Shown: positions 1 through 616 of the stretch, piece by piece
Layout: each line of letters begins with the position of its first letter
Position numbering within the stretch: position 1 is the stretch's first letter
Source: Escherichia coli
GTDB lineage: Bacteria > Pseudomonadota > Gammaproteobacteria > Enterobacterales > Enterobacteriaceae
DNA length: 616 bases
NCBI RefSeq assembly: GCF_003334255.1
Contig: NZ_QOWU01000209.1
Reading direction: 5' to 3' (one strand)
Made by a program: the position numbers and the translations under genes
The notes under the pieces: generated by a model
What the model was told of the DNA's origin: nothing
The model's database searches: none
Seen by the model: the letters and a program-made list of their open reading frames with translations, nothing else

Positions 1-616
1 CCTGAATCAGACGGCCCAATTCATCATATTCCCGGCGCAATTCCAGCCCGTCAGGCCCGGTGGCTGACGTTAACTGGCTGTGGTGGTTATAGTAAAACGC
101 CGATGCCCTGCCATCCGGCGTGGTGATGCGCGTGATGAGGCCCGTCACCACATCCGGACTGTATTCTGTTGTCCTGCCTGCGGCATCCGTCTGTGCCCTG
201 AGCCTGCCCACCGCGTCAAACTGACTCTGCGTGACGCTGCCGTCCGCGTGTTCCTTTTTCACCACCCGCTTCAGCCCGCCTTCACCCTGCGTGTGCAGGA
301 CTTCACGGCGGTTCAGGCTGTCGGTGATGGTGATGCGGTCCTTCTCATACTGATACGTGTAACTTAAGCCTGCCGGGTTTAGCTGTTCTGTCACCCGCCC
401 GTCGCTGTCGTAACGGTAACAGATTTCCGGTCGGCCCGTGTGACGGTGCGCCACCATCCGGCCCCGGTATTTATCATCGTAAGTAAAGCTGCGCACCTGT
501 GTATTGCTGCGGTCATACACCGCCGCCAGTTCGCCGCGGGGCGTCCAGCCATAGCGCACCAGCGGCGCGGCAGGTAAATTCTCCGGGTATTCCGGGTCGT
601 GCGTCAGCCACACGGC
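1..616 (-). CDS. Rhs family YD-repeat core protein, internal fragment (both ends outside window; first complete codon is 616..614, last is 4..2)
   Basis: Seen in sequence: the reverse-complement frame starting at 616 is open for all 205 codons. The translation contains YD-repeat motifs typical of Rhs cores (VYDRSNTQVRSFTYDD, YRYDSDGRVTEQLNPAGLSYTY, FDAVGRLRAQTDAAGRTTEY, YDELGRLIQ) and xDG turn motifs (HADGS, TPDGR, GPDGL). GC is about 61% and third-position GC about 72%. From memory, not a search: the peptide closely resembles the N-terminal part of E. coli Rhs core proteins, but I cannot assign a paralog (rhsA to rhsE) and so give no gene symbol. Confidence 0.93.

Follow-up and report, generated by a model that had tools for sequence, protein, structure and literature searches.

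Composition, codon usage and inheritance of a GC-rich segment of the Escherichia coli rhsC-type Rhs core

Results

Identity of the analysed segment

The DNA analysed here, hereafter referred to as the window, is a 616-base stretch of Escherichia coli and derives from the interior of an rhsC-type Rhs core gene. A six-frame check left a single open frame, which runs on the minus strand from base 616 through 205 codons without a stop, whereas each of the remaining five contains 5-11 stops; plus-strand ORFs of 24-95 amino acids were rejected as shadows of the minus-strand gene. According to the rhsC locus coordinates, the window corresponds to codons 293-497 of the 1397 codons of rhsC. At the DNA level it shares 99.7% identity with rhsC of E. 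coli G4/9 and 99.5% (613/616 bases) with K-12 rhsC, in which the three base differences lead to two amino-acid changes, Leu for Ile and Leu for Trp. The frame, the position in the gene and the AGG, CGA and CTA codons are shared with the core of K-12 RhsC (b0700), a member of the RhsA/B/C/F subfamily, which is clade I in Jackson et al. 2009. Overall, matches were found at 12117 places, in about 3885 of 5426 complete E. coli genomes, and 12115 of these places lie on E. coli chromosomes. Among the best 20 of the 3886 matching records none reaches 100% identity, the best of these being 99.7%.

Profile searches gave a consistent picture. Specifically, the window protein is collinear with positions 301-505 of the NCBIfam model RHS_core (NF041261; E 1.5e-120, 403.9 bits, the whole-protein cutoff of 2000 bits being out of reach for a 205-residue fragment), and the full K-12 RhsC matches positions 1-1247 of the same model with 2683.5 bits. 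In addition, TIGR01643 (YD_repeat_2x) matches residues 117-152 of the window protein at 56 bits (cutoff 15.8), and Pfam PF05593 recognises four repeats at E <= 4.5e-05 and one weaker repeat. These data confirm the Rhs core assignment proposed in an earlier note on this DNA. The features of the window are the following:

2..616, minus strand: ORF fragment of 205 codons, rhsC-type Rhs core codons 293-497, predicted part of the YD-repeat shell
317..412, minus strand: RHS/YD repeat, residues 69-100 (PF05593, E 5e-06)
104..220, minus strand: RHS/YD repeat, residues 133-171, containing all four AGG codons (PF05593, E 8e-08)
47..145, minus strand: RHS/YD repeat, residues 158-190 (PF05593, E 1.8e-05)
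5..91, minus strand: RHS/YD repeat, residues 176-204 (PF05593, E 4.5e-05)
197..205, minus strand: two AGG codons (197-199 and 203-205) in AVGRLRA (codon count and homologue alignment)
173..175, minus strand: AGG, Arg of AAGR (codon count and homologue alignment)
107..109, minus strand: AGG, Arg of PDGR, a Gly-Arg of the YD repeat (AGG in 11 of 11 homologues compared)

Other scans of the window yielded little. No Rfam match was obtained at E <= 1 and no terminator-like site was detected in the window. Repeats were limited to a direct pair of 19 nt and an inverted pair of 15 nt, as may be expected by chance or in a gene for a repeat protein. A single weak sigma-70-like match was observed at positions 64-93 of the plus strand, antisense to rhs (CTGACG, 18-nt spacer, TATAGT; 9 of 12 positions). 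Shuffled sequences contain 0.2 such promoter-like matches on average, and the site is a putative one.

Similarity to Rhs shells of known structure

The window aligns within the YD-repeat shell of solved type VI secretion system (T6SS) Rhs effectors with E values from 4.6e-31 to 1e-14, the matched structures being P. aeruginosa Tse5 (8cp6, E 4.6e-31), the S. bongori Rhs core (8qjd) and Photorhabdus Rhs1 (7q97), although the sequence similarity is distant. RhsA of P. protegens is a further structurally solved T6SS Rhs effector of this group (PMC8765631). In solved Rhs effectors, the YD repeats build a closed beta-spiral around a C-terminal toxin that is released by autoproteolysis (PMC8765631; PMC8636562). 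Tc toxins (TcB/TcC) and teneurins belong to the same repeat family; however, their shells have another domain context and far lower similarity to the window, and the teneurin-like PDB matches were weak (E about 1e-6).

Beyond the window, K-12 RhsC carries RHS_core together with the Rhs-associated core (TIGR03696, residues 1170-1247), with DPLGL at about residue 1243; this is followed in the K-12 orthologue by a tip of 41.6% GC and then by ybfB downstream, all outside the 616 bases. Residues 1-300 of K-12 RhsC match DUF6531 (E 2.9e-18) and, weakly and partially, PAAR_motif (E 0.13, 19 residues). No vgrG or T6SS genes were found within 20 kb on either side of rhsC at the G4/9 and K-12 loci. As judged from sequence similarity, a shell role of the window segment is well supported, and this particular copy would presumably combine shell and toxin functions.

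Related rhs copies

Five contigs of 0.5-4 kb contain the Rhs core or relatives of it, with 62-98% amino-acid identity and 61-66% GC. Four of them are labelled as MAG or uncultured assemblies (Oscillospiraceae, Akkermansia muciniphila, Collinsella), and the fifth, from a draft genome and 553 bp long, carries the label Rheinheimera sp. A13L. We rejected the MAG and Rheinheimera contigs as evidence on host range, as they most likely represent mis-binned or contaminant enterobacterial DNA. One homologue (L019, positions 1-612) shows a tandem duplication of 10 residues, with AGRLKAQTDA occurring twice, inside a YD repeat.

Very small plasmid-labelled records that consist largely of an rhs core fragment were also observed: NZ_CP069926.1 (5191 bp, Klebsiella oxytoca), with 95.6% amino-acid identity to the window, and likewise NZ_OY757120.1 (7307 bp; 66%) and CP048292.1 (7010 bp; 60%). 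These records may be assembly artefacts, or may be related to the circular recombination intermediates that have been proposed for rhs (PMC2935791).

In G4/9, two orphan partial-core modules lie downstream of rhsC (L001, 13551-17299), a 'partial rhsC + ybfB' unit followed by a partial core with ybfC; only the partial-core and ybfC unit is found in K-12 (L002, 15422-17299), and G4/9 thus provides an example of tip-array expansion. At the rhsC position of E. coli CX12 (L030, 13687-17886), the annotation gives a pseudogene interrupted by an internal stop, with the product 'RHS element core protein'. In Citrobacter amalonaticus, the open frames surrounding the match span no more than 2.3-2.5 kb in the three rhs copies, which may be pseudogenes or reflect frameshift errors in the assembly.

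Base composition of the window and of the rhsC core

The window contains 202 C and 173 G, that is 375 G+C in 616 bases (60.9%), and 148 of its 205 codons carry G or C at the third base (GC3 72.2%; GC1 62.4%, GC2 47.8%). Our recount thus reproduced exactly the 375/616 and 148/205 reported in the earlier note. As host background, we used 226 annotated genes from six samples of 40-50 kb, with raw GC of 50-52%, of the K-12-like genome NZ_CP026361.1, and 916 in-frame segments of 205 codons served as size-matched controls. The host genes average 0.518 in GC (sd 0.037) and 0.555 in GC3 (sd 0.061), and not one of the 226 reaches the values of the window (0.608 and 0.722, respectively). The size-matched segments reach its GC in 1 case of 916 and its GC3 in 9. 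GC1 is ordinary (0.624 against 0.601 in the host), and GC2 is high (0.478 against 0.403), with higher values in only 9 of the 226 genes. Therefore, the compositional anomaly of the window is real.

The excess has two components. When the window protein is recoded with host codon usage, the expected GC and GC3 are 55.9% and 55.4%, so that amino-acid composition accounts for about 4 of the approximately 9 points of GC excess and synonymous choice for about 5. The protein is rich in Arg (10.7% vs 5.5% in the host), Thr (9.8% vs 5.2%) and Tyr (6.8% vs 2.7%), as well as in Asp, and is poor in Ile, Lys, Phe and Met.

It could be argued that nothing here is atypical, either because the source organism has itself about 60% GC or because the excess derives wholly from the amino-acid composition of the repeat. 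The high GC2 and the roughly 4 points attributable to the protein speak for such a view, which is nevertheless close to untenable: the near-identical matches are E. coli chromosomes (12115/12117) with flanks of 50-52% GC, and the GC3 of 0.72 exceeds the 0.554 expected for the same protein under host codon usage. Accordingly, the claim of the earlier note that the window is atypical for an enterobacterial host of about 51% GC stands, GC and GC3 lying above those of all 226 genes, and its reservation about a host of about 60% GC does not apply. The part of the claim that calls for qualification is the reading of the GC value as a whole, because about half of the excess is the composition of an Arg/Thr/Tyr/Asp-rich protein (GC2 0.48 vs 0.40).

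The window is compositionally typical of the whole rhsC core. In K-12 rhsC, codons 1-1247 have a GC of 61.3% and a GC3 of 71.5%, against 41.6% and 31.3% in the C-terminal tip, and the downstream ybfB has about 31% GC. Codon usage of the core is intermediate, Glu and Lys being host-like and most other families shifted to G/C endings; its RSCU correlates at 0.78 with the host background and at 0.79 with Rhs of Ralstonia and Halomonas.

A GC-rich core followed by an AT-rich tip has been textbook knowledge on Rhs elements since the 1990s and is a routine aid for delimiting rhs cores. The GC-rich composition reported here was already described by the Hill laboratory in those years, and its account of a G+C-rich core with an A+T-rich extension has been summarised (PMC2935791). 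In Serratia, the shell has 67.7% GC and the tip 46.4% (PMC2935791). The same study reports that rhs genes of one clade differ in composition between genomes (PMC2935791).

Rare codons and codon adaptation

In the minus-strand frame, AGG codons lie at plus-strand positions 203-205, 197-199, 173-175 and 107-109, a CTA at 380-382 and a CGA at 431-433, each precisely where the earlier note had placed it. AGG represents 1.6% of host Arg codons, so that 4 among 22 corresponds to a binomial probability of 4e-4, and 0 of the 916 control segments contain at least 4 AGG. When eight rare codon types are pooled, the window contains 12, a number equalled or exceeded in 103 of the 916 segments. As 10 of these 12 codons end in G or C (AGG, CGG, CCC), rare codons and high GC3 are one signature and not two. 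The rare-codon claim of the note is borne out for the excess of AGG and is weaker for rare codons taken together.

The codon adaptation index (CAI) was computed with 29 ribosomal-protein, tuf and fusA genes as reference. The window scores 0.336 against a background median of 0.39; 44 of the 226 genes (19th percentile) and 152 of the 916 segments of 205 codons score lower. With a CAI that is unremarkable and rare codons that repeat the GC3 signal, the suggestion that the DNA is lowly expressed stays a tentative one. As far as codon usage can tell, the value is compatible with modest expression and undistinctive. The conditions of rhs expression have been described as hard to define (PMC2935791).

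In the K-12 rhsC core (L002, 17752-21492, minus strand), AGR codons are used at 6 of 19 Gly-Arg arginines and at 6 of 99 others (Fisher p = 0.004); in other words, the rare AGR codons gather at the Gly-Arg of the YD repeat, mostly as GGC-AGG. A similar pattern was observed in rhsD, E. albertii and Trabulsiella, with odds ratios of 4-8.5. The 226 background genes show no such pattern (odds ratio of 1.3, which is not significant), nor do the Ralstonia and Enterococcus homologues. Furthermore, the AGG of PDGR (107-109) and the CGG of LKRV (266-268) are identical codons in 11 of 11 homologues compared. Distant homologues, at a dS of 1.0-1.2, keep the codon at only 54-63% of conserved residues; given about 4-5 independent lineages, the invariance of the two codons is within chance.

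Age and inheritance of the locus

Outside E. coli, the closest relative is found in E. albertii, with 93% amino-acid identity. The 8.9 kb upstream of this copy comprise the kdp operon and ybfA and match 5424 of the 5426 E. coli genomes at about 92% (91.9%). As this flank is the E. coli kdp-ybfA region, the locus is orthologous. Between E. coli and E. albertii, the dS of the rhsC core is 0.25, compared to 0.21-0.42 for kdpA-E. The same site and a core dS equal to that of the flanks indicate that core and flanks have descended jointly from a time before the species split. The dS of 0.25 also excludes the E. albertii copy as a recent transfer from E. coli. In agreement, the rhsC locus, or clade I, has been reported to predate E. 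coli (PMC2935791).

These results bear on the possibility that the window is a recent horizontal acquisition into E. coli, that is, a compositional island. Such an island is recognised by GC and GC3 deviating from the host, and the window lies above 226 of 226 genes; the patchy distribution of rhs matches (about 3885 of 5426 complete genomes) and the remnants of ISAs1/H-repeat transposase and the AT-rich tip downstream point in the same direction. A recent island would also be absent from the site in the sister species or show a dS discordant with its flanks; on the contrary, the E. albertii gene occupies the kdp-ybfA site, its dS of 0.25 equals that of the flanking genes, and the locus has been placed before the origin of E. 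coli (PMC2935791). We consider a recent acquisition highly improbable. The description of the DNA as horizontally acquired consequently holds in an ancient sense only, and not as a recent event.

With respect to genomic islands and the amelioration model of Lawrence and Ochman, the window shows the off-host GC and GC3, the intermediate codon usage and the net GC to AT flux. It differs from the usual compositional islands in being GC-rich rather than AT-rich, in occupying the orthologous site in E. albertii as well, with a flank-like dS, and in owing half of its deviation to amino-acid composition.

Mutation spectrum of the rhsC core

Polymorphism at synonymous third positions was compared among six E. 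coli strains and polarised by E. albertii. In the rhsC core, S>W changes affect 54 of 746 sites (0.072) and W>S changes 16 of 316 sites (0.051); in kdpA-E, the figures are 92 of 1332 (0.069) and 54 of 985 (0.055). Per site, the spectrum is therefore that of kdpA-E, and no extra W>S input was seen in the rhsC core among the six strains. Mutation in the core thus resembles that of the adjacent genes, and since more of its sites are G/C, the net result is a loss of GC, as reflected in the 54 S>W against 16 W>S changes; this comparison covers one locus in six strains and reflects mutation more than fixation.

A test of synonymous changes along the E. coli and E. albertii rhsC branches, polarised by outgroups (rhsD and/or Trabulsiella), returned 72 S>W against 22 W>S changes, and 29 against 1 when the outgroups had to agree. 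This test was set aside: with an outgroup dS of 0.9-1.3 and a GC3 of 0.72, mis-polarisation alone is estimated to predict ratios of up to about 2.6:1 and about 6.6:1, respectively, so that the excess is not significant. As a possible control outgroup, kdp genes were sought in the Citrobacter and Trabulsiella rhs loci and none were found.

Composition of relatives in other hosts

Relatives of the core (rhsD, Citrobacter, Trabulsiella) have a GC3 of 0.67-0.76 in hosts whose flanks have 50-55% GC. Their dS from rhsC is 0.86-0.92 for K-12 rhsD, 1.1-1.2 for Citrobacter amalonaticus and 1.0-1.35 for Trabulsiella. If a single entry had been followed by decay alone in a background of about 51-55% GC, a two-state estimate puts the required ancestral GC3 at about 0.9-1.0, which is at the limit of plausibility; the GC3 of Ralstonia Rhs, 0.87-0.90, comes near this value. 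Such a high requirement argues for several entries or later transfers, or for a weak maintaining force at fixation.

In a wider comparison, the GC of the YD shell was set against that of its flanks in Moraxella (49% vs 44%), Enterococcus (43% vs 37%), Halomonas (67% vs 56%) and Ralstonia (69% vs 64%). The shell lies above the flanks in 4 of 4 other sampled hosts, which suggests a family-intrinsic offset; the flanks include AT-rich tips and immunity genes, however, and the offset is inflated as a consequence. The cross-species sampling is thin, consisting of 15 loci from one contig scan with no E. coli representative among them.

Discussion

The data presented above can be accommodated in the following scheme. 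The window encodes several YD repeats of a predicted beta-sheet shell, or 'cocoon', of the kind that surrounds a variable C-terminal toxin in Rhs proteins characterised to date. Two sources account for its 61% GC, the first being a protein rich in Arg, Thr, Tyr, Asp and Gly (about 4 points) and the second a synonymous preference for G/C endings (about 5 points; GC3 0.72, host 0.555). The synonymous component would have been inherited from a GC-rich clade ancestry rather than generated locally. The gene has been passed on vertically at kdp-ybfA since before the split between E. coli and E. albertii, and the core shows the mutation pattern of its neighbours and a slow loss of GC, which amounts to amelioration. 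AGG, CGG, GGG and CCC represent the G/C-ending face of the same bias and no independent sign of low expression. Taken together with the identity of the segment and the partition of its composition, an old GC-rich lineage, vertical within Escherichia and slowly losing GC, is in our judgement the best explanation and a probable one. Such a picture was already drawn by the Hill laboratory in the 1990s. We infer that the donor or ancestor was GC-rich.

A different proposal is that the GC-rich composition is the equilibrium state of Rhs/YD-shell genes, kept up either through selection acting at the level of mRNA, DNA or codons or through GC-biased gene conversion tied to the frequent recombination of rhs loci, in which case it would carry no message on foreign origin. 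In line with this proposal, a GC3 of 0.67-0.76 is kept in relatives about one synonymous turnover away (dS 0.9-1.35), pure amelioration is estimated to need an ancestral GC3 near the upper limit, and the AGR codons are position-specific, at the Gly-Arg of the repeat. The higher GC of the shell in the four other hosts compared above, and that in Serratia (67.7% vs 46.4% in the tip; PMC2935791), fits as well, but the offset to the flanks is inflated by AT-rich tips and immunity genes, and the GC of distant YD shells follows that of the host, from 43% to 69%. Moreover, the S>W and W>S values of the rhsC core (0.072/0.051) match those of kdpA-E (0.069/0.055), and rhs genes of the same clade differ in composition between genomes (PMC2935791). 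All together, we regard an equilibrium as unlikely, though deserving of serious attention.

Less likely still, and in our opinion doubtful, is the narrower idea that the G/C-ending bias of clade I and the confinement of AGR to Gly-Arg, including the AGG that is invariant at dS > 1, are held in place and are not the fading relic of a transfer. If they are held, translational pausing during the folding of the beta-hairpin shell may be a cause, as may biased gene conversion at a recombination-prone locus.

In conclusion, our data favour an old, vertically inherited GC-rich lineage as the origin of the composition of this rhsC-type core segment. Relatives one synonymous turnover apart keep the same GC3, which is not easily reconciled with simple amelioration after a single entry. 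Since the gene has been at the orthologous site from before the split between E. coli and E. albertii, the strong compositional anomaly is here no sign of recent transfer, and the case calls for caution in inferences based on composition.
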